IMG/VR virus record: IMGVR_UViG_3300013845_000001
Location: 108,565-128,564 of that record
Source of the DNA: an uncultured virus (IMG/VR IMGVR_UViG_3300013845_000001)
Taxonomy: Duplodnaviria > Heunggongvirae > Uroviricota > Caudoviricetes
Length of the DNA: 20,000 nucleotides
Reading direction: 5' to 3' (one strand)
Shown in pieces: positions 1 to 19,723 of the stretch (positions are counted from its first letter, which is position 1; each line of letters opens with the position of its first letter). Position numbers and translations under genes: made by a program. The notes under the pieces were generated by a model, which ran no database searches, was not told the origin of the DNA, and was given only the letters and a program-made list of their open reading frames with translations.

Positions 1-31
1 TGGTATAGCGGCATTCATTAAAAACTACGGT
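1..31 (+). CDS. 3' end of upstream exon of phage tape measure protein (runs off window start)
   Basis: Frame 2 reads GIAAFIKNYG and ends in U31, followed by TAA at 32-34. Joins in frame to QLKDL at 3530 if 32-3529 is spliced out. Exon end TACGGT can pair with GCCTA (80-84), with a U31.G80 wobble and C28 bulged. Confidence 0.75.
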
Positions 32-614
32 TAACTCTGTAATAAGAGTTACGCTTAAATTTCCGAGGGATTTAAGTTGGCCTATCATGGGGAAGAATAT
101 ATCATAATGGCGATATAAACAATTCCATGGGACGAAAGTTTTAAAATAAAAAGAGGATTAATTGCTTGAAAGTGTAATGCTCACTACTCTTCTATTTTAG
201 AAGAAACCGAAAAATAAGGTAAATAAGTCAAACGGTTTACACACCGGAGTGAGATTTCTAGGGATAAAAAATAATTCCCGACAGATGTACAATCACCAAC
301 GAAGCAGCTAGCCCTATCTGTGTATCACGATGTATAATCCGATGGTAACAATTGCGCAAGCAATGTCGGGATAAGATCATTAATGATAGGGAGTGTTCAG
401 AGAGCACCACTCCTCACAGTACATGAAAGCCATATTTCATTGTGCTGTTAACGCATGTTCCAAAGTGTACACGATATCAACGCTTCACGAGGCGCTGGAT
501 ATTATAATGTTGTAAAAGATATGGGCTACAGCCTATCATTGAGCGTAATATGGAAAAGTTAATCGTTTCTATGTTATGTATCAAAATAGTTATGTAGATT
601 CTCCCATATTTTTA
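32..614 (+). ncRNA. Group I ribozyme core and peripheral helices
   Basis: P3 GAGGA 153-157/TCCTC 411-415; P4 TGCTT 163-167/AAGCA 302-306; P6a CCCTATC 312-318/GATAGGG 385-391; P7 G400,(A401 bulge),GAGCA 402-406/TGTTCC 456-461; P8 ACAGTACA 416-423/TGTGCTGT 441-448. P/Q/R/S-like motifs AATTGCTTGAAA, AAGCAGC, GTTCAGAGAGCA, ACGCATGTTCC occur in canonical order. Further helices extend to ~613 (515-525/603-613). Confidence 0.9.
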
Positions 615-721
615 AATAAAGTATTTATTCGCCTTTTTATATGATTGAATACTAATATAATGTACCATCCTATATATTGTTTGAATATAATACAATAAAT
701 CAAATGGAGATGTATAGAAAT

Positions 722-880
722 ATGACGAAAAAAATTATTAATTTGACCGAAGAAGGCGAAGCTCTAGGATATCCAAAAACTCCAGATTCTGAGATGATAG
801 AGATGGGTATATTTGATGGAAAGATAATCAATTTTATAAAAGTAATGTTTATAAAGATAGTTAAAATGATGAAAAGGTAG
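722..880 (+). CDS. Small hypothetical protein (52 aa; the track starts it at TTG 677), intron cargo
   Basis: GGAG at 706-709 upstream of ATG 722. Ends in a terminator-like hairpin. Contains YPKTPDSE. Confidence 0.5.
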   Translation: MTKKIINLTEEGEALGYPKTPDSEMIEMGIFDGKIINFIKVMFIKIVKMMKR

Positions 881-895
881 TCAATAGACTACCTT
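874..895. terminator. Probable bidirectional terminator between convergent small ORFs
   Basis: Perfect 9-bp stem AAGGTAGTC-aata-GACTACCTT overlapping both stop codons. Confidence 0.65.
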
Positions 896-1055
896 ATTCC
901 TCGTTCTTTTTATTTTTGTCGTTATCATTAACATGTTTAATTTCTGAGAACATCTCTACCACATATTCTGGTCTAGGCGTACTTGGATACTGTTCTCCTT
1001 TTTCATTGGTGTTATTAGTACTTGTCATCTTGATAACATTTTCATCGTCTGACAT
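894..1055 (-). CDS. Small hypothetical protein (53 aa, MSDDENVIKMTSTNNTNEKGEQYPSTPRPEYVVEMFSEIKHVNDNDKNKKNEE), not in ORF track
   Basis: Strong RBS GAAGGAGGAG just upstream of the ATG. Start overlaps the end of 1042-1623, suggesting translational coupling. Confidence 0.7.
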   Translation of the reverse strand: MSDDENVIKMTSTNNTNEKGEQYPSTPRPEYVVEMFSEIKHVNDNDKNKKNEE

Positions 1056-1623
1056 TTATTTCTCCTCCTTCTATATGAATATTTTGTATATTATTATTAT
1101 TTATAAATTTGGTCTCATAGTAATCAATACCGACACCGAATGTATACGATAAAATAGATACTGCGAAAGTGATGCATATGAAATAACTCAACGATTTATG
1201 TTTCATGTTCTTTGTAATGTTCACATTTCTATTATGAATGGCTTCATTAATAAAACATTCACAGAGCATATTATTTACATGTATATCTGCTTTTTTAATA
1301 TGCTTTTTATCTGTCATTTGATATGTTTGTGAGATCGCAACAGCCATATCTTTAATTGGGAAATAACTCATTTTATAGCCAGAGTATGCTTTATAAAACT
1401 TGTGCAAGCAAATTATAAATAAAATCGTTGACAAAGCGCAAAATATCAAGTAAACAATAGTACACCATGATAAAGAAAAACGAACAAATTGTGACCAAAG
1501 TAATATTTGTGCACTACCAAGTATTGTAAGAAACGTAATACAAGTATTAATTTTATTACTTAATCTATCGGAATATTCTATCTCCTTATAATATAAGTCT
1601 TTGTATTCTTCAAGCAATTCCAT
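1042..1623 (-). CDS. Hypothetical multi-pass membrane protein (193 aa), intron cargo
   Basis: About three hydrophobic segments. AAGGAG RBS. Upstream TGGTAAAAT extended -10. Confidence 0.85.
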   Translation of the reverse strand: MELLEEYKDLYYKEIEYSDRLSNKINTCITFLTILGSAQILLWSQFVRFSLSWCTIVYLIFCALSTILFIICLHKFYKAYSGYKMSYFPIKDMAVAISQTYQMTDKKHIKKADIHVNNMLCECFINEAIHNRNVNITKNMKHKSLSYFICITFAVSILSYTFGVGIDYYETKFINNNNIQNIHIEGGEINVRR

Positions 1624-1655
1624 ATGATGATGTTCTCCTTTGTATCATATGGAAT

Positions 1656-1697
1656 ATTTTACCATCGTCAATACAATAAAACAAGAAACAGATGTTT
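1656..1697 (-). promoter_or_regulatory. Sigma-A-like promoter of 193-aa gene with adjacent LexA-box-like palindrome
   Basis: TTGTTT (1684-1679), 17 bp, TG-G-TAAAAT (1664-1656). AAACAGATGTTT at 1686-1697 resembles the boxes at lexA and dinB. Confidence 0.5.
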
Positions 1698-1909
1698 GTC
1701 GATGAGGATATAAAATCGACATATTTCGACATTTATAATATTGAGTTAGTCATTAAGCTGTATATTAAAATAACATAAGCTGAACCCCTCTTTTATACTA
1801 CAATCTTGCGTCTTACTAGCTTCATTGTTTTCAAAATTTTTATACCTATCTGGAAATTTCTTCCACTCCATGATATAATAATTTTTAAAAGAGATACAGG
1901 AGGGATTGT

Positions 1910-3001
1910 ATGAAAAGGTTATTATCAATTGTATTAGTTTTTATTTTCTCTATTAGTTTACTCATGACGTCTTCTGCCGAAGAATATATGGGAGCATGGG
2001 TCACAGATGATATTGGAACTTGGTATCGATATAATGATGGAACATATCCTTCTTCCTGTTTTATAAAGAAAGATAGAAAACTTTATTATATTAATCAAGA
2101 TGGGTATGTAGCCCCTAATGTATCACTGTTTGGAGGATATCAAACAGATTCTCAAGGAACAGTTATAGGATATACTACTAAAAATAATGTCTATTCTTTA
2201 TTGCATACGTCTGATGGTTGGAGACAAGATGCAAATGGTTGGTGGTATCAATACCCAGACGGTTCTTACCCTAAAAATACTGATATTACTGTAAATGGTA
2301 AACTTTATTGGTTAGGAATTGACGGATATATGTTGCATGATTGTTATGCAAGAAATCATGGTTATTATGGAAGCGATGGCTCTTATGCTAATAAACTTGA
2401 TAAAAATGCAAAGATTACTATACAGCAACCAGCATCAGATACAAGAAGCGATGGAGCCGGGGTTGAAAATACATCGAATGAAGCTTTTCTTAATCTAGTC
2501 CATCCAGTCGATATAATAGGTGGCGGCTTTGTTGAAAATTATGTGGGTGGAATAAGTCCTAGCGTCGCTTTTAGAAACAACTCGGGTAAAGATATAAAAT
2601 ATGTAACCCTTGAAATGACACCTTATAACAGAGTTGGAGATCCTGTGAATTGTACAATCCGAAACTATTCAACAACAACATGTAGAGCCACGGGTCCATA
2701 CGCTCCTGATATGGGTGTTGGACAAGGAGCATATTCAATTACTTCTGGACTGGTACCAATATTTGATCATGATACAGATCACCCTTATTATTATACATCA
2801 CGCACTTTCGAAAAGAGGGAATTAGAAAAGGCAGCATATGCAAAGACATTTAATAACATGCCAGGTTGGGAAAATGTTTGGTATAATAGCAATATATATA
2901 AAATAAAAATCACAAAAGCTATTATTGATTATATGGATGGTACAAGTGACACAATATCCTCTTTAGATATTACAATGTTCCACGACGATTCCCTCAATTA
3001 A
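1910..3001 (+). CDS. Secreted protein with cell-wall (choline-binding-like) repeats, intron cargo
   Basis: Signal peptide. Repeats WYRYNDGTYP, GWRQDANGWWYQYPDGSYPKN, LYYINQDGY, LYWLGIDGYM. GGAGGG RBS and TGATATAAT at 1871-1879. Confidence 0.85.
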   Translation: MKRLLSIVLVFIFSISLLMTSSAEEYMGAWVTDDIGTWYRYNDGTYPSSCFIKKDRKLYYINQDGYVAPNVSLFGGYQTDSQGTVIGYTTKNNVYSLLHTSDGWRQDANGWWYQYPDGSYPKNTDITVNGKLYWLGIDGYMLHDCYARNHGYYGSDGSYANKLDKNAKITIQQPASDTRSDGAGVENTSNEAFLNLVHPVDIIGGGFVENYVGGISPSVAFRNNSGKDIKYVTLEMTPYNRVGDPVNCTIRNYSTTTCRATGPYAPDMGVGQGAYSITSGLVPIFDHDTDHPYYYTSRTFEKRELEKAAYAKTFNNMPGWENVWYNSNIYKIKITKAIIDYMDGTSDTISSLDITMFHDDSLN

Positions 3002-3032
3002 ACAAACAGTTAATTGATATAATATGAAATTC

Positions 3033-3066
3033 AAAAGACCTTTATCAACAAAGGTCTTTTTTCTTT
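3033..3066. terminator. Bidirectional intrinsic terminator
   Basis: AAAAGACCTTT-atcaac-AAAGGTCTTTT with A/T tracts on both sides, between convergent genes. Confidence 0.8.
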
Positions 3067-3472
3067 AAAATTTACTCCCACAATTATTGCATTTCCAAGT
3101 CTTACCGTTATCTCCCATGCCGAAAATTCCAAATGCAGCTATCTTTGCGACCTTTTTTGTTGCGGATATTTTAGAGAGGTTTGTGCTGCTACATGTGGGG
3201 CATTTTGGAATATTATTTTCTACCTGTTTTTGCGCCGCCCACATAGCCTCTTGCTCAGGAGTAGCTAAACCTACTGTTCTATTGCACTGAGGACAGATAT
3301 ATTCATTATTTTTTATTGAATAATTCATCTTGATCTTATTAGGCAACCCAAAATTACAATAAGGGCATTCTACTGTATTTTTTATTAGATCAAGATTAAA
3401 GCCACAATGTGGGCATGATTTTGCACTATCGCTAATATTATTATCGCATTCTGGACATTTAATTAAAGCCAT
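3065..3472 (-). CDS. Zinc-ribbon domain protein (135 aa), intron cargo
   Basis: Six CxxC motifs (CPEC, CPHC, CPYC, CPQC, CPTC, CNNC). GGGGGA RBS at 3481-3486. Confidence 0.85.
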   Translation of the reverse strand: MALIKCPECDNNISDSAKSCPHCGFNLDLIKNTVECPYCNFGLPNKIKMNYSIKNNEYICPQCNRTVGLATPEQEAMWAAQKQVENNIPKCPTCSSTNLSKISATKKVAKIAAFGIFGMGDNGKTWKCNNCGSKF

Positions 3473-3503
3473 AAATATATTCCCCCACTTATTATTTATG
3501 CAT

Positions 3504-3532
3504 ATTATACTTCTATTTATTGTTTAATGCAA
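3504..3532 (-). promoter_or_regulatory. Sigma-A promoter of zinc-ribbon gene, overlapping the intron 3' splice site
   Basis: TTGCAT (3532-3527), 17 bp, TATAAT (3509-3504). Confidence 0.7.
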
Positions 3533-6500
3533 CTTAAAGACCTCGGAAATCTTTCAAACGTTTTAAAGAATATAAATAGTAGTAACAATATAGCTGACAG
3601 TTTTAATGCTCTTGAAGTAAGTATGCAAAAGTGTGTGCTCGCCAGCGGAAAGTTAAGTGTTGCACAACTGGATGCAATAAATTCAGGTACCATATGGAAA
3701 ACCAACATTGATGGTACTATGGTTTCTGTATCAGGTCTTTCTAAGACTGAATTAGAAGCAGCAATTTCCACTACCACTCTCTCCGCTTCACAGACCACTG
3801 CAACAGCAACTACAACTGGATTCGGTACTGCCCTTAAAGGTCTTTGGGCAACCATGATGGCAAATCCTTTAATTGCAATAGGAATGGCCGTAACAGCTAT
3901 CTCAACAGCATGGAATATTTATAATCAGTCCATCGAAAAAACAAGACAAGCTTCAGCTGATGCGGCGGGCGCATTAAACGAAACCACCTCATCAATTAAT
4001 GATTATGCTGAAAAGTATAAAAAATTACACGATGAACTTGTCAAGGCAAACACTACCGAAGAACGACAGCATGAAATAAAAAGTGATCTTCTTGCGCTCC
4101 AACAAGAATTAAACGATAAGTACGGAGATGAGTACGGAAAATTAAATCTTGTTACAGATGCTTATAATGATCAGACCGATGCAATCTTGGCAAGAAATAA
4201 AGCCGCTGCACAAAATTACCTTCTTGAAAATAGAAAAGGTATAGCTGATGCGACTAAGCAAATGGAACAAGACCGTACCTATACGCTTGGCAGCACTGGT
4301 AATTTATCAAACGACTATGCAAAAGAAATATATAGTATAGCTTCAAAATACTCTAACCAGGGTATAAAACTAGAGTCTCTTAAAAATAACGGAGTAGATG
4401 CCTATACCATCAAGTTTTTTGGAAATGCCGAAAATGCAGAAAAAGTCATACGTAATCTCTCCAATGAGATTCAAGATCTTGGAAATAAATATGAAGACAA
4501 CAACTTCATCAATGGGTTCTTAGATAACTCAACAAATGCACTTAAAGAGAACCAAAAAATATTAGATAAATACGATGAAATATATAACTCCGCATTGATG
4601 TCTCAAATTGCCACTGATAACGAACTATCAGAAGGTTATAATAAGGCTACAAATGCCGTTAAAGCATATAACGATGCACTAATTTCTGGTGACGAATCTA
4701 AAATATTATCGGCAAGAGATGATCTTAGGGAAGTAAAAAATTCCATTGATTTAACAAGCGATAACTGGAAACGATATGGAAATGTAATGACTGATATTTT
4801 CGATCAGGCTAATACTGGACTATACGATTTTAGAGATGCGCTCTCTTCAAATAACGATAATATCAAAGATTATGCTAAAAATCTAAAAGGTTTATCAAAA
4901 ACAGATGTATTATCCATGGCAAATGATGGAAAAGATGATAGTTTTGATAAAATTGTTGAATCTGCCAATAAATATGGATTAAGTATTAACCAGGTCATTG
5001 ATGAATTGGTCAGATTGAAATTTGTTCAAGATGATGTAGCAAAATCTGGTGAAGTAGCATTCACTCCTCTCTCCAAGCAAGAAGTAATTTCAAACATCAA
5101 CTCTCTATCTGAAGGTTTTGAATCTTTAGATAAAATTATGAAGAGTATATCCGACAAAGATAATCCGTTTGACTATGCTCTACTAGATGACAAAAAGTTC
5201 AAAGATAATTTTAAAGACTTGGGAGAATCATATACCGATTTCGTTGAAAAAGTATCTTCTTCACCAAAAGATATTAATATCACAAAATCTGCATTCAATG
5301 ATCTCGTAACTACATGGATTGATAGTTCTGGTGTATTAAATGGACTTACAGACGAAAACGCCAATCTTGCTACTGCTATGCTTCAGAACATGGGTGTTGC
5401 TAATGCGGAAGAAGTTGTAATGTCTCGATTAGCAATTGCACAGGAGCATTTAGCTGCTGAAAAAGCTTATACGGCAGAAGTAAGTAATGACCTCGCAAAT
5501 GCTACCGCCAGTGAGATTCCAGGAATCATAGATGAGGCAACTCAAAGTGATATCGCTAAGGTTGCGCTTGCCGGGCTGGTATTAGAGAAGGAATTTTTCA
5601 ATGGAAATGCACTTGATACTAGTGGAGATATTCAAAATATCATCTCTCTTATCGGGGTCATCGGTACTGCCAATACAGCACTCAAAGCGTTAAATACCTT
5701 GAAAGCCGGTGGAAATGTAGGAGGCAATATTGGGGGAAAAGAAGGCTATGATGCTCTTGTAAGAAACGCACAACAGGAAGTAGATGAAGCAATAAAGGCT
5801 GCTTCTGAGTATAAGGGCAAGGGTTCAAGTGTCAACGCATCGTATACAGGTGGTACAAAAACAAACAAGCCCTCTTCTGGTTCTAAAAAAGATAAAAAAG
5901 ACACCGAGAAACCTATTGACTGGATTGAGCGACAGCTAAAATTGCTTAAAGATAAAAGGTCAGAACTGGTCAGTAAAATTTCTGACACCTATTCTGCATT
6001 TTCCACAGCTACGCATGATCAAATTCTGGAGCTGGACAAAACACTCATTGACGAATATGCAAACGCAGTTAATCAGTATCAGCAGGAATATGATAAAGCT
6101 GTTAGTAAAATATCGGCTCAAAACAAAGCAAAAATAGAAAATGGGTCTATGTCTGTAGACACTCTTTCTGGTACTGAATTAGAAAATGTGCAATCAGCAA
6201 TGGACGCTTATGATAAACTCGCTGGTACACAGAAGGAACAATCTGAAGCACAAAAAACGCATCTAGATGATATAAAGTCTAAATATGATGCTATTTCAAA
6301 ATCTATTGAGAATGAAAACAATAAATTAAAAGATTCTAATTCTATACTAGAAAGCCAGATGGAATATTACAAGTCATCTGGTATTGTTATCGACTCTTCA
6401 TTTTACGACAGGCTTATTCGGAATACGTCAGGATTAATTTCTAATGCCAGAGATACAATTAGTAATAAACGAGCGGAATTAAGGGATCTGCTTGCTAATG

Positions 6501-8484: not shown

Positions 8485-8518
8485 GAGGAATCTGGAGATA
8501 TCTGGATTCCTCATTTTT
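8485..8518 (+). terminator. Terminator-like hairpin after the tape measure gene
   Basis: GAGGAATCTGGA-gata-TCTGGATTCCTC followed by ATTTTT. Confidence 0.6.
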
Positions 8519-15687: not shown

Positions 15688-16623
15688 TCATGCGTCATCT
15701 TCTTTAATTCTACATTCTCTTGGTAACTTGTTTTCTCTCACACTTTTAAACGTTGGTTGACGAATACCCTCTTTTTCAGAAGGCATATATTCAATAGTAC
15801 ATACCATTGGTTCCATCCATGTCGCATCAGCATACCCTTTTAAGTTTTTTATAGGACAATTAGAAATTCTCATTCCGTGTTGGTTGAGCTTAGCGATACT
15901 TACGCCAAGAGAAACGTGGTTAGTGATAATTAATTCATCGTCGTCATTGTACTTCGCCAGAATCAGCGTTGTCATACTGTTCTTATTAGGAATATATCCT
16001 ATGCAGACAAAATCTTCTTCTTTAAGCACTTTGATCTTCTTCCAATCCCTAGATCGCTTTCCAAACCAATATAGACTTGCCTTCTTTTTTCCAACGACTC
16101 CTTCCAAGCCATTTTCCTCTGCAAAATTGTATATCGCAATTCCATTCTTTTCAACGTATCGAGATTTTGACAATATGTCACTTTCAGATATTACTTCGTC
16201 TAATAACTTTTTACGCTCAATTAGTGGTAAATCAGTTACTTGTTTATCTTTATAGTAAAGTATATCATAAACTACAAAATTTGCTGGGTGTTTTTTATAC
16301 GCTAGTTCTATCTTAAAGGGATCAGTTAAAACCGTCCTTCTTTGAACTTCGTAAAAATCCGGCTTCCCATTAACCAATACGTTTAACTCCCCGTCGAGTA
16401 TGCATTTCTGTTTGCAGCCCTTAAACAATAATTCTAATTCCGGAAACCTTGACAACAAGCTCATATTTCGCTTATTTCTCAAATCGGTAGATTTATAATC
16501 ATTATAAGCAATGCATCTGATCCCATCAAATTTAAGCTCAAAGATAGAATCCACATCATCATACGGATCAACTCTTTCAGATATAAGCATGGGCTTAATA
16601 CCCTTTTCATCGAAAATATCCAT
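15688..16623 (-). CDS. ATP-dependent DNA ligase (LigD/LigC-type ligase domain only)
   Basis: Motif I ELKFDGIR, III LDGEL, IIIa VYDILY, IV EGVVGK, V WKKIK, VI IRQPTFKSVR. Confidence 0.92.
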   Translation of the reverse strand: MDIFDEKGIKPMLISERVDPYDDVDSIFELKFDGIRCIAYNDYKSTDLRNKRNMSLLSRFPELELLFKGCKQKCILDGELNVLVNGKPDFYEVQRRTVLTDPFKIELAYKKHPANFVVYDILYYKDKQVTDLPLIERKKLLDEVISESDILSKSRYVEKNGIAIYNFAEENGLEGVVGKKKASLYWFGKRSRDWKKIKVLKEEDFVCIGYIPNKNSMTTLILAKYNDDDELIITNHVSLGVSIAKLNQHGMRISNCPIKNLKGYADATWMEPMVCTIEYMPSEKEGIRQPTFKSVRENKLPRECRIKEDDA

Positions 16624-16702
16624 TATACCCTCTTGTTTCGCTTTGCCATATTATCAGTGATCTAATTATTGTACTAATAACCGAAAATCCTATACATGCA
16701 CT

Positions 16703-17014
16703 TTATATTACCATGATCCACTTACACGATTCCATATAAAAAACCAGTTTAAATTCATGACGTATGCCGCCAATGATTGCATCACAGTGAAATTCTTTTG
16801 ATGGAATTCCATTATAATTTTTATCTTCAGTGCATTTTATAATTATATCAGATATTGTTTGTATCACGCCATCATCGCCTTCAAATTTGAAACTTAGGGG
16901 GCGAGGGCTGCAATTAGCGGTAAACCAAGCCTTGCAAGCAATATTGTACTTCTTACCGTGTAGCTCTCCGCTATCAATCTCTTTTACATTTGTTCCAATC
17001 CCAAATGCACTCAT
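16703..17014 (-). CDS. Small beta-rich protein downstream of dinB (putative polymerase accessory factor)
   Basis: P.P.SF and terminal L.F......W pattern. Operonic with the Y-family polymerase. Confidence 0.7.
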   Translation of the reverse strand: MSAFGIGTNVKEIDSGELHGKKYNIACKAWFTANCSPRPLSFKFEGDDGVIQTISDIIIKCTEDKNYNGIPSKEFHCDAIIGGIRHEFKLVFYMESCKWIMVI

Positions 17015-17027
17015 GTTACCTTACCAC

Positions 17028-18290
17028 CTATAATATATTTTGAGTTTCATAATTCACGGTTCTCTTTTCACGACTGATTCCGCCGCTCATATGGTCAACT
17101 TTATCGGCCTTAATAAAACTTGCTCTTACAATGGAATCTGTGCCAAACCTTTTCCTTATATCGTCCACCGCTCTATCTAGACGCTCCTGTTTCTCATAAT
17201 CCATATCATCAAATAGGTTGAGCTGTCTTGTATCTTCAGTTACTACTTGGCTGGTATGAATACCAAGATGTCGGATTGGAACCTTATCCCACATTTCATC
17301 AAACACTTGGCAAGCTGATTCGTAGATTTCTCTTGTTATGTTGGTGGCAGTTTTCAGTTTCTTTTGGTGGCTGTAATACCCAAGGTTATAATCCCTTATT
17401 CCAACAGATATTACTTTGATTTTCACGTTGTTATCTCTTAATCTTGCACTAACTGTCTCCGCTAATGAAAGTAAAACTAATTTTGCAGTATTGACATCCG
17501 TAACATCAAATGCGATTGTGGTACTGTTACCATAGCCCTTATTTGGTGGCGGTACAGGTTCAACTGCCGAGAAATCAATTCCATTTGCAAAAGACCATAT
17601 TACTTCCCCGTGTTTACCAAGATGAGATTTAATTATTGATAGATCAGTTTGTGCTAACTCTCCTATTGTTTTAATGCCTAGATTGTTAAGTTTACGCGCA
17701 GTAGCTCTACCAACAAAAAATAGGTCAGATGCAGGAAGCACCCACATTTTATCCTTTATTTCACTTAACCACAGTGTATGCACCTTATCAGGCTTTTTAA
17801 AGTCTGATGCCATCTTAGCCAGGACTTTATTATTTGAAATTCCAATATTTACCGTAAAGCCAAGTTCTCTATAAATACGCTCTCTTATTTTATTTGCAAT
17901 ATCTTCTGGCTTTCCAAACAATGATTCTGTGCCAGTCATATCCATGTACGCCTCATCGATGGAATATTGTTCTACAACGGGGCCATATTCCTTTAAAATA
18001 TTTATGAAAGCTTTTGATGATTTTTGATATAGATTATAATTAGGAGGAACAAGAACGAGGTCAGGACACTTTCTTAATGCTTCAGGTACGGATTCTCCTG
18101 TTTTTATATTATATTTCTTTGCTGGTATACTTTTCGCAAGTATAATACCATGTCTTTTTGTAACGTCACCACCAACCGCTGACGGTATGTTTCGCAGGTC
18201 TAAATTCCCACCCAAATGGTGTATCCGATATACTGCTTCCCAACTTAGAAAGGCGGAGTTTACATCGATATGAAAAATTACTTTATTCAC
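17028..18290 (-). CDS. dinB: Y-family DNA polymerase (Pol IV/UmuC-like)
   Basis: HIDVNSAF, YSIDEA, LAKMASDFKKP, clamp motif QLNLF, LDRAVDDIRKRFG. Confidence 0.93.
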   Translation of the reverse strand: MNKVIFHIDVNSAFLSWEAVYRIHHLGGNLDLRNIPSAVGGDVTKRHGIILAKSIPAKKYNIKTGESVPEALRKCPDLVLVPPNYNLYQKSSKAFINILKEYGPVVEQYSIDEAYMDMTGTESLFGKPEDIANKIRERIYRELGFTVNIGISNNKVLAKMASDFKKPDKVHTLWLSEIKDKMWVLPASDLFFVGRATARKLNNLGIKTIGELAQTDLSIIKSHLGKHGEVIWSFANGIDFSAVEPVPPPNKGYGNSTTIAFDVTDVNTAKLVLLSLAETVSARLRDNNVKIKVISVGIRDYNLGYYSHQKKLKTATNITREIYESACQVFDEMWDKVPIRHLGIHTSQVVTEDTRQLNLFDDMDYEKQERLDRAVDDIRKRFGTDSIVRASFIKADKVDHMSGGISREKRTVNYETQNIL

Positions 18291-18308
18291 ATAATCACCT
18301 CTAGAGAT

Positions 18309-18329
18309 ATTGTACTCGAATGTATGTTC
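18309..18329 (-). promoter_or_regulatory. SOS (LexA) box and -10 element of dinB operon
   Basis: GAACATACATTC (18329-18318), one mismatch to Firmicute GAAC-N4-GTTC, next to TACAAT (18314-18309). Confidence 0.7.
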
Positions 18330-18347
18330 GTTTGATAGTGGAAATTA

Positions 18348-18370
18348 AAGGAAGCATTATTTGCTTCCTT
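18348..18370 (-). terminator. Terminator hairpin after the lexA operon
   Basis: AAGGAAGCA-ttatt-TGCTTCCTT. Confidence 0.65.
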
Positions 18371-18375
18371 ATTTT

Positions 18376-18705
18376 TTACTTATATGCCGGTTCAAATCCG
18401 CGTTGCTCATTATAAGCATATTGCAATAGGTCATATAATTCATTTGTAATAGTTCCCATACCATTATATCCATCAAGCATATCAATTATTTTTGATGCAT
18501 ATTCCGATGGCGCTGATTTTCCATCGATTCCCCTATATAGTTCTTCCTTTATTTTCTCCAAGTTTTCATGCTTCTGTGGTAGTGGAAGGCCATACATCTT
18601 CGCCAAGATTCCTATCGCACAACAACACTCATTAACAGATGTCAATGTAATCCCTTGAAATCTTGATTTTATTTCGATTGCTTGTTTATTTATAGAGAAT
18701 ACCAT
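18376..18705 (-). CDS. Hypothetical protein (109 aa) downstream of lexA
   Basis: AAAGGA RBS, followed by a terminator. No family recognised. Confidence 0.7.
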   Translation of the reverse strand: MVFSINKQAIEIKSRFQGITLTSVNECCCAIGILAKMYGLPLPQKHENLEKIKEELYRGIDGKSAPSEYASKIIDMLDGYNGMGTITNELYDLLQYAYNEQRGFEPAYK

Positions 18706-18735
18706 GTTGATTTTCCTTTGTGTTTTTATATTTTA

Positions 18736-19356
18736 TCAATGAATACCCGGTCTAAATAAACCTATAACTTTTCCTAAAATCGCTACCTGATCTACTATAA
18801 TTGGTTCCATTGAATCATTTTCTGGCTGTAAGCGGTAATGTCCGTCCTCCTTGAAGAATCGCTTTACTGTGGCTGAGTCCCCTACTAACGCAACAACTAT
18901 ATCTCCATTTTCTGCCATTGGACATTGTTCTATAATGATCTGATCTCCTTCGAGAATACCTGCGTTAATCATACTATTCCCCTTTACGTTTAACATAAAT
19001 GTCTCGGCATTTGGGAGAAGGTCAGATGGTATAGGGTAATAATTTTCAATGTTTTCCTCAGCATATAAAGGTTGACCAGCAGCCACGGTTCCAAGGAGCG
19101 GAACTTTTACAACGTCCCGTTGCTCTAAATTAAAACAATCTTCCATAATTTCGATAGCTCGTGGCTTGGTTGGGTCTCTTTTAATATATCCCTTTTCCTC
19201 AAGTGTCTCCAGGTGAGAGTGGACGGATGATGTTGATTTTAAACTGACCGCTTCGCAAATCTCTCTGACTGCTGGTGGATATCCTCTATTATTTATTGAC
19301 TCTTTTACATAATCAAATATTTGCTTTTGTATTTTACTCAATCTTATATTTCTCAT
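18736..19356 (-). CDS. lexA: LexA repressor (206 aa; start corrected to ATG 19356)
   Basis: GYPPAVREIC...STSSVHSHL winged HTH, RDPTKPRAIE, Ala-Gly site VAAGQP, catalytic GNSM and TVKRF. AGGTGGG RBS. Confidence 0.95.
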   Translation of the reverse strand: MRNIRLSKIQKQIFDYVKESINNRGYPPAVREICEAVSLKSTSSVHSHLETLEEKGYIKRDPTKPRAIEIMEDCFNLEQRDVVKVPLLGTVAAGQPLYAEENIENYYPIPSDLLPNAETFMLNVKGNSMINAGILEGDQIIIEQCPMAENGDIVVALVGDSATVKRFFKEDGHYRLQPENDSMEPIIVDQVAILGKVIGLFRPGIH

Positions 19357-19381
19357 AGGTATGCCCACCTTTCTATATGGT

Positions 19382-19420
19382 ACTATACCATATGTAATTT
19401 GAAAATGCAAACATATGTTC
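19382..19420 (-). promoter_or_regulatory. lexA promoter with overlapping SOS box
   Basis: TTGCAT (19410-19405), 17 bp, TG-G-TATAGT (19390-19382). GAACATATGTTT at 19420-19409. Confidence 0.8.
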
Positions 19421-19477
19421 TGCTCTTCACAAAAAAATATGCCGAAAACCCTCATTGCGAAGATTCTCGGCATAAAT

Positions 19478-19723
19478 TCAGCTACCCTGTTCAACTTCAG
19501 CTTTGGATATAAGTAATTCCTTTAATTCAGCTAAGGACATGTTTTGCTCTTCTAGTATTGATGAAACCTCTTTAAACTCTTCTAACTTAATTTCATCTTG
19601 TATTTGCTTCTCTTTTTCCTGAAGCGTTTTGATTGAGGCTTTATATTGCTCTATCGAATCTTGTGTGTCTTTTAGTTCATCTCTGAGTTTTACGAGTGGT
19701 GATTTGCGAACTCCACGTGGCAT
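19478..19723 (-). CDS. Small coiled-coil hypothetical protein (81 aa)
   Basis: AGGAGG RBS, TGGTATAAT at 19767-19759, downstream hairpin at ~19438-19474 with a T tract. Confidence 0.8.
   Translation of the reverse strand: MPRGVRKSPLVKLRDELKDTQDSIEQYKASIKTLQEKEKQIQDEIKLEEFKEVSSILEEQNMSLAELKELLISKAEVEQGS

Follow-up and report, generated by a model that had tools for sequence, protein, structure and literature searches.

How can one message for a tape measure protein (TMP) be made from a gut phage gene whose two coding parts lie about 3.5 kb apart, with other genes and terminator-like hairpins between them? The question is raised by a 20,000-nt stretch of DNA (the window; positions 108,565 to 128,564 of virus record IMGVR_UViG_3300013845_000001), which forms the right end of a virus record of 128,564 bases. 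This record was classed as SPbeta-like by homology and is called G000; other G and L numbers refer to related records and loci. A first-pass annotation of the window had proposed an intron with sense-strand terminators, so that the full TMP message would need either late-gene read-through or the joining of two RNAs in trans. The answer favoured here, at a probability of roughly 0.6, is that a YonO-type phage RNA polymerase reads through the hairpins and the intron is spliced in cis, with the tail genes insulated from host polymerase by the terminators and by a last cargo gene in antisense orientation.

The interrupted TMP gene and its junction

TMP exon 1 (518 aa, plus strand) starts at G000 position 107042, and its 3' end occupies window positions 1-31, with the 5' splice site after U31. 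Its open reading frame (ORF) is closed by an in-frame stop codon at 32-34, which opens the intron. A frame of 1648 codons picks up again at 3530 and extends to 8476 on the same strand (exon 2, 1648 aa), its first 21 nt being the target of the P10 guide described below. The sequence in between, 32-3529, is 3498 nt long, and joining of the two exon frames would yield a TMP of 2166 aa.

Both TMP parts were matched by 11 of 240 homologs. The closest intron-less homologs (2124-2139 aa) run colinear with both exons through the exact point where these meet: the position equivalent to NYG closes exon 1 and QLK opens exon 2. Of the 240 homologs, 219 stop within 40 aa of the exon 1 end point. Colinearity and the clustering of these ends therefore mark 32-3529 as an intervening sequence in the TMP gene, of a kind common to most of the TMP family, with a junction fixed by the intron-less homologs. 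Interruption being so common, many TMP genes of this family are likely to be split by annotation pipelines. A split gene with an independently translated exon 2 was considered and rejected: no Shine-Dalgarno-like site was seen before the ATG at 3527, and the junction is without ATG or TTG in 10 of 30 distinct 3' ends.

Two relatives depart from this layout. An extra 2-kb insertion with a 478-aa ORF follows exon 1 residue 455 in L003 / L042, giving a three-exon gene, and L018 (5600-12600) holds a tandem pair of TMP exon-1-like ORFs, with an intron and a 647-codon exon 2 after the first.

Group I intron structure

Helices P1 to P8 were modelled on the window sequence, and the pairs were then counted in a 20-sequence alignment. 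For the relatives, only loci confirmed by nhmmer were used, because a loose DNA pattern scan gave mostly chance loci. All elements lie on the plus strand. The core (86-461) comprises P2, P3 (153-157/411-415), P4-P6, P7 (400-406/456-461) and P8 (416-448). It is preceded by a first hairpin within the P1 loop (32-51) and by the P1 portion of the intron's internal guide sequence (IGS; 80-84), which pairs with the end of exon 1 and covaries with the last exon codon. A P9-like hairpin follows at 474-510, where the conservation of relatives stops, and the intron closes with the terminal omega-G at 3529. Position 462, at which the first-pass annotation had started the intron, is the first base past P7; the real start is 32.

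Across the 20 sequences 90.7% of core cells were paired, against 72.8% in shuffles and 39-45% in slid controls, figures that are inflated by kinship among the sequences and by derivation of the structure from the window itself. Two-sided changes were found in 39 of 51 core pairs, compensatory changes are present in each of P1, P3, P7 and P8, and none of 500 shuffles equalled any measure. The fraction of paired cells was 100% in P3, 95% in P7 and 95% in P8, and the P3/P7 pseudoknot is present. The U-G pair at the 5' splice site is invariant (20/20 aligned introns), the adjacent pair covaries (AU/CG/GC), and the G-binding G-C pair is found in the window and in 16 of the 20 introns. By covariation the catalytic core is confined to the first 430 nt of the intron. 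Relatives diverge beyond position ~510, and conservation before omega-G is limited to about 5 nt. On these comparisons the covarying structure of a group I intron is present in full in 32-3529, and the intron would be expected to splice.

The Rfam group I model gave no match to the intron, either at the gathering threshold or at E<=5, and the structural model of the window intron has no P7 extension. In L012, L013, L018, L031 and L154 the G-binding pair of P7 is replaced by G opposite G, although G is still the last base of these introns; the helix of this sublineage may pair in another register. Other group I subtypes, with different P7 sequences, occupy the same TMP site in L001, L005/L006 and L051, where cargo is also present.

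A long P10 guide as the proposed tether of the intron ends

A 21-nt P10 guide (59-79, plus strand) is complementary at 19 of 21 positions to the start of exon 2 (3530-3550). It sits immediately 5' of the G that pairs with U31, and this arrangement matches the standard geometry given in PMC3984707. Its length is unusual, because the natural P10 described in PMC6155759 is weak and spans nt 2-8 of the 3' exon.

In a blind duplex scan of the 30 introns with exon 2 available, 21 had the guide's top match at the in-frame start of exon 2, following a G; L013, L098 and L131, which had no automatic IGS call, and nine rows lacking exon 2 sequence were left out of this count. In the 9 of 30 introns that the scan missed, P10 is shorter or interrupted. 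For L013, L016, L031, L040, L044, L060, L072, L230, L240, L244 and L252 the exon 2 frame was used to place the junction manually. The window guide scored 41 at exon 2 and 28 at the runner-up among 14,895 positions, and in 23 of 27 introns the pairing of the guide with its own exon ranked within the top tenth of cross pairs. We take this covarying 21-nt guide to be a real tether, which would hold the two intron ends together. Top duplex matches within antisense cargo ORFs of L001 and L040 were discarded as chance, no long exon frame following them.

A local hairpin at 53-77 is predicted, which would mask the guide until exon 2 arrives. Exon 2 is predicted to out-compete it, since the P10 duplex was calculated at -27.3 kcal/mol and the guide hairpin at -7.7 kcal/mol. 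A local guide hairpin of this kind was predicted in 22 of 29 introns. The idea that a long P10 compensates for distance found no support: P10 strength showed no correlation with the length of the intron (rho 0.00, n=29), the cargo-free 523-nt intron of L154 having a P10 of -22.3 kcal/mol and a 7.4-kb intron one of only -7.0 kcal/mol.

Other pairings had been put forward to bring the ends together. The one between 463-469 and 3506-3512 exists, but at -5.2 kcal/mol it ranked 0.39 and 0.52 against cross-intron controls, and its 3' partner falls on what reads as the -10 of a sigma-A-like promoter pointing leftward. The sequences of the other (613-624 with 3507-3519) are present and are not conserved, L002 keeping only the 3' partner and L003 only the 5' partner. 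No long P9.0 pairing was found in the window (the same ranks, 0.39/0.52); 8-9 of 29 relatives reached the top decile, a 2-bp P9.0 being below detection. More generally, a helix between the segment after P7 and the intron's 3' terminus was not supported for the window, and relatives showed a mild excess. This was clearest in the lineage of L230 and L240, which combines a short P10 with a helix of -13 to -15 kcal/mol between the post-P7 segment and the last 30 nt of the intron, apparently an alternative means of joining the ends.

Terminator-like hairpins in the intron and the late region

Terminator sites were called with our own, stricter scanner, and termination at them is predicted. Both intron hairpins reported by the first-pass annotation were recovered. 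The hairpin at 874-895 is real (9 bp, -11.9 kcal/mol), but its immediate plus-strand tail is poor, and the extended form at 865-905 (-17.2 kcal/mol), which has T tracts on both strands, is needed for a good U tract. The second, at 3033-3066 with a good plus-strand U tract, was confirmed (3033-3060, -11.0 kcal/mol; core 3036-3057, -8.3 kcal/mol). A stable hairpin, a U tract and a gene end, as expected of an intrinsic terminator, coincide at 865-905 and at 3036-3057. These 2 sense sites in 462-3529 compare with 0.05 +/- 0.22 in 20 shuffles and are above chance. The first lies between convergent ORFs of 52 and 48 aa and the second between the convergent 363-aa and zinc-ribbon genes, and both are where ordinary cargo terminators belong.

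Similar hairpins are found well beyond the intron. The plus-strand hairpin between TMP and the next tail gene (8485-8518; 8485-8512, -16.5 kcal/mol), which had been cited in favour of antitermination, proved a sound pointer: such hairpins occur throughout the late region, before the TMP start and in intron-less relatives. From terminase to tail end, the 34.4-kb late region of G000 holds 11 sense sites, 2 of them in the intron, against 1.4 in shuffles. The SPbeta late operon (yonK-bhlB, 37.9 kb, NC_001884) holds 15 against 0.8, and several of these are also annotated as stem-loops in NC_001884. With start codons roughly assigned, a hairpin directly before the TMP start was found in G000, at SPbeta yomI, in 20 of 54 split loci and in 8 of 15 intron-less relatives, and a similar site just after TMP in 6 of those 15.

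In 32 introns of the window's subtype (523-11,474 nt, 120 kb altogether) there were 51 sense and 41 antisense sites, and sense terminators are therefore not selected against in cargo. Relatives have up to 5-6 sense sites per intron, with hairpins down to -19 kcal/mol. The terminator-like hairpins are thus real but not special to the intron.

A YonO-type polymerase, the likely enzyme of the late region

G000 encodes, at 71498-74242 and so outside the window, a 914-aa protein with 47.6% identity to SPbeta YonO over 83% of the query (E=0). It matches PF05183 above cut-off and has the DxDGD motif. Of 48 related records, 45 gave a YonO-like gene: the single-protein search yielded 25 of them, and a second search of its negatives yielded 4 more with PF05183 and 16 with an alignment. 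The misses are two fragments and one metagenome-assembled genome (MAG). In G025, G042, G039, G021 and G033 the match to the gene is divided, either into two pieces separated by about 1-2 kb or between two frames, which suggests introns, inteins or split forms.

YonO is processive, pauses little and is needed for 37 late genes (PMC5467207), and RNA-seq suggests that the SPbeta late genes are a single operon transcribed by it (PMC5467207, PMC8270828). The claim that the late phase needs read-through is supported by the terminator-like hairpins along the late region. By analogy with SPbeta, the agent, which the first-pass annotation had missed, is likely to be this polymerase. No test of YonO at intrinsic terminators was found in the open-access literature, subscription journals being mostly uncovered.

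Proposed read-through followed by splicing in cis

In a lysogen, host polymerase would express the cargo from the cargo's own promoters, and the intron hairpins would terminate only the host enzyme as it transcribes these passenger genes. Sense terminators and the antisense last gene would together bar host transcription from exon 2 and the tail genes downstream. After induction YonO, if it acts as in SPbeta, would copy the late operon, exon 1, the 3.5-kb intron and exon 2 into one RNA. In this single long precursor the ribozyme core would locate the distant 3' splice site through the 21-nt P10 guide, and the intron would be spliced out in cis.

The order of the exons is as this reading would have it. 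Exon 2 was located in 45 of 54 distinct split loci. In each of these 45 it follows exon 1 on the same strand, none being inverted or displaced, and the gaps between the exons include ~10.2, 11.5, 15.4 and 18.4 kb. Of the 9 loci in which exon 2 was not located, 8 had less than 3.5 kb of sequence; loci spanned about 10 kb on each side.

Several points weigh against the reading. An exon 2 relocated far away could be missed in loci of about 10 kb each side. Splicing and read-through in this phage are deduced from sequence, and the terminator calls come from a single scanner of our own. P10 is far longer than the pairing with nt 2-8 given for natural cis introns (PMC6155759). The available text of PMC5467207 reports no terminator test of YonO, and the single operon is only 'suggested' there by RNA-seq. 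Internal YonO promoters are possible, and in MAGs the YonO-like match may come from another prophage. Precursors with 10-18 kb of untranslated, partly antisense-covered RNA (G001, G002, G003, G020) would be exposed to nucleases.

The role of splicing as a lytic-phase checkpoint, also put forward by the first-pass annotation, is unneeded: exon 1 itself lies behind a terminator-like late-region hairpin, and the checkpoint adds little because exon 1 would stay untranscribed in the lysogen too. What stands of that annotation is the hairpins and the need for read-through; the end pairings, the start at 462 and the checkpoint do not. If the favoured reading is true, the same DNA is read differently by two enzymes, the host polymerase halting at cargo terminators and the phage polymerase passing them. 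An essential structural gene can then host multi-kilobase blocks of accessory genes, and whether YonO-type polymerases ignore intrinsic terminators becomes directly testable.

Alternatives to a single precursor

The strongest argument for trans-splicing is one that the first-pass annotation did not cite, the 21-nt P10; the pairings it did offer fail their controls, no conserved sense promoter turned up ahead of exon 2, and exon order is conserved. It is doubtful, on balance, that these are natural bacterial group I ribozymes with a second step in trans, in which the core on an exon-1 RNA would capture a separate exon-2 RNA through the hairpin-masked guide and its exposed loop. Such a route, if true, would leave room between the exons for as much as 18 kb of passenger genes, transcribed and terminated on their own, and would permit a choice among tandem alternative exon-2 copies, as in G002. 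It would also make these phage introns naturally trans-acting group I introns, and no such phage case was found in the literature searched. In G002 (L051 + L261), tandem paralogous exon-2 starts lie ~13.4 kb and ~18.4 kb past the exon 1 end; their frames (416 and 1885 codons) are alike at their beginnings, and they may serve as alternative 3' splice sites or be left over from cargo capture. The two RNAs could be pieces of one read-through precursor that is often cut in the cargo, the 5' ribozyme piece capturing the 3' piece by the 21-bp P10. Every catalytic helix lies 5' of the cargo, the 3' site needs little besides G and P10, with only ~5 nt conserved before omega-G, and no general intron-intron pairing closes the cargo. 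The predicted advantage of P10 over the guide hairpin (-27.3 against -7.7 kcal/mol, with such hairpins in 22/29 introns) also fits, and a second step between two RNAs is possible in vitro (PMC12336344). Since P10 strength does not follow intron length (rho 0.00, n=29) and the cleavage site is hypothetical, we think this version unlikely. Alternatively, exon 2 could be transcribed from a separate promoter in the intron, of host or YonO type, with the hairpins ending the exon-1 RNA and trans-splicing obligatory. Sense terminators in 23 of 27 introns longer than 1.5 kb and the long P10 are in keeping with this, as is a sense promoter match of 10/12 at 3452-3481, a stretch (3070-3500) in which no clear plus-strand promoter had previously been seen. 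That remark does not fully hold, given this match; window-wide, however, such matches are at chance level (90 found, 90.4 expected), and the -35 of this one falls in Cys-Pro codons of the antisense gene. Of 29 introns, 8 have matches of at least 10/12 within their final 250 nt (3.6 expected), but the 8 include near-identical relatives, and it is the start of the antisense gene (-10 box, start codon, ribosome-binding site, Cys-Pro codons) that accounts for motif enrichment ahead of the 3' splice site. Late-region intergenic motifs do not clearly recur in the non-coding parts of the window intron (best 16, shuffle maximum 15), exon order and strand are intact in all 45 located cases, and terminators of the same kind surround TMP in intron-less relatives; obligate trans-splicing is accordingly given very little weight.

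Two further rivals were weighed. The hairpins could be weak or leaky terminators, or 3'-end stability elements, that let enough precursor through without a special mechanism. The core at 3036-3057 is just -8.3 kcal/mol, 874-895 reaches its U tract only in the extended form, and TMP is required in few copies per virion. Leakage across serial sites would multiply down, and in relatives an intron may hold as many as 5-6 sense sites, with hairpins to -19 kcal/mol, which makes this a poor prospect. Alternatively, read-through could fall to the host enzyme, altered by some phage antiterminator (a protein or an RNA element) that escaped recognition, much as lambdoid phages control their late genes. 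This would fit the numerous host-type terminators along the late region, and the phage has a weak sigma-factor-like gene, with family assignments lacking for most of its proteins. It too seems highly improbable: no NusG, Q, RinA or ArpU-type match was found among 107 G000 proteins (NCBIfam) or 49 (PHROGs), a weak negative as most of them lack a family, and the YonO ortholog is intact, SPbeta late genes depending on YonO (PMC5467207). Read-through by YonO with splicing in cis is preferred to all of these.

Cargo genes and neighbouring features

The intron cargo begins with two small ORFs, each with a Shine-Dalgarno-like site: 722-880 (plus strand, 52 aa, no Pfam or PHROG match) and 909-1055 (minus strand, 48 aa). 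They share a similar short Tyr-Pro-x-Thr-Pro stretch and are possibly a small paralogous or interacting pair. A 193-aa ORF with hydrophobic segments and no family follows at 1042-1623 (minus strand). The 363-aa ORF at 1910-3001 (plus strand) has endolysin-like (cell-wall-binding) repeats and is preceded by a sigma-A-like promoter at 1851-1879 (plus strand; 10/12, extended -10). The zinc-ribbon gene (135 aa, 3065-3472, minus strand) adjoins the 3' splice site, and a sigma-A-like leftward promoter lies at 3504-3532 (minus strand), its -10 at 3504-3509 and its -35 overlapping the splice site; both promoters are consensus matches only.

The 122 cargo proteins of the intron set fall into 56 families. 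The antisense zinc-ribbon family has 31 members among them and is nearly always the gene that adjoins the 3' splice site. All 31 cargo-bearing introns, which are not all independent, end with an antisense cargo ORF, though sense ORFs make up 52 of the 135 in the cargo. Kiwa-like, GmrSD-like, PemK-like, NYN and antirepressor genes are found in the relatives, and no homing endonuclease family was found among the cargo proteins scanned. The 11,474-nt intron of G001 / L260 carries sense cargo with three tail-collar-domain genes and an IS66 element, and structural genes can therefore reside in the intron. Elsewhere in G000, an IS200/IS605 TnpB gene (103283-104401) is in the late region upstream of TMP, and genes for an ATP-dependent ligase, a UmuC-like polymerase and LexA occupy window positions 15688-19494 (minus strand) at the right end of the record.

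Comparison with known systems

Group I introns in TMP genes are already known from prophages of the B. cereus group (PMC2504315). These introns, TMP-IVS1/2/3, also interrupt the gene in frame, begin with a stop codon and have a P1/P10 guide. They belong to IA1/IA2 and, as described there, carry at most a homing endonuclease, whereas the window intron has a 21-nt P10 and kilobases of unrelated cargo with its own promoters and terminators. SPbeta shares with G000 the YonO polymerase, a homologous TMP (yomI), terminator-like hairpins in the late region and counter-oriented genes; its yomI is annotated as uninterrupted (NC_001884), and its passenger genes lie between genes, with none in an intron. 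Multi-gene cargo in a TMP intron, lengths of ~18 kb, a 21-nt P10 and a link to YonO were not found in open-access text, subscription journals being mostly uncovered.

Whole genes are likewise carried by the hexacoral mitochondrial ND5-717 intron, which reaches 18-19 kb and, as a giant gene-carrying intron, avoids cis splicing (PMC6545197). It poses the same question of cis or other splicing. In the window the cargo lies instead after P9 and before omega-G, and exon 1 is not preceded by exon 2. IStrons (PMC4227781) are alike in that coding DNA separates a Firmicutes group I ribozyme from the 3' splice site; they move to many sites and carry an IS element, whereas the window family sits at one TMP site. 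There is also a likeness to engineered trans-splicing ribozymes (PMC6155759), in which the ribozyme is on the 5' exon and a strengthened P10 chiefly finds the 3' splice site. Those are designed and have an elongated P9.0, whereas in the window family the long P10 is natural, mostly no long P9.0 was found, and action in trans is hypothetical. The introns described here thus supply natural ribozymes with a long covarying P10, like that of the engineered 5'-replacement trans-splicing designs.

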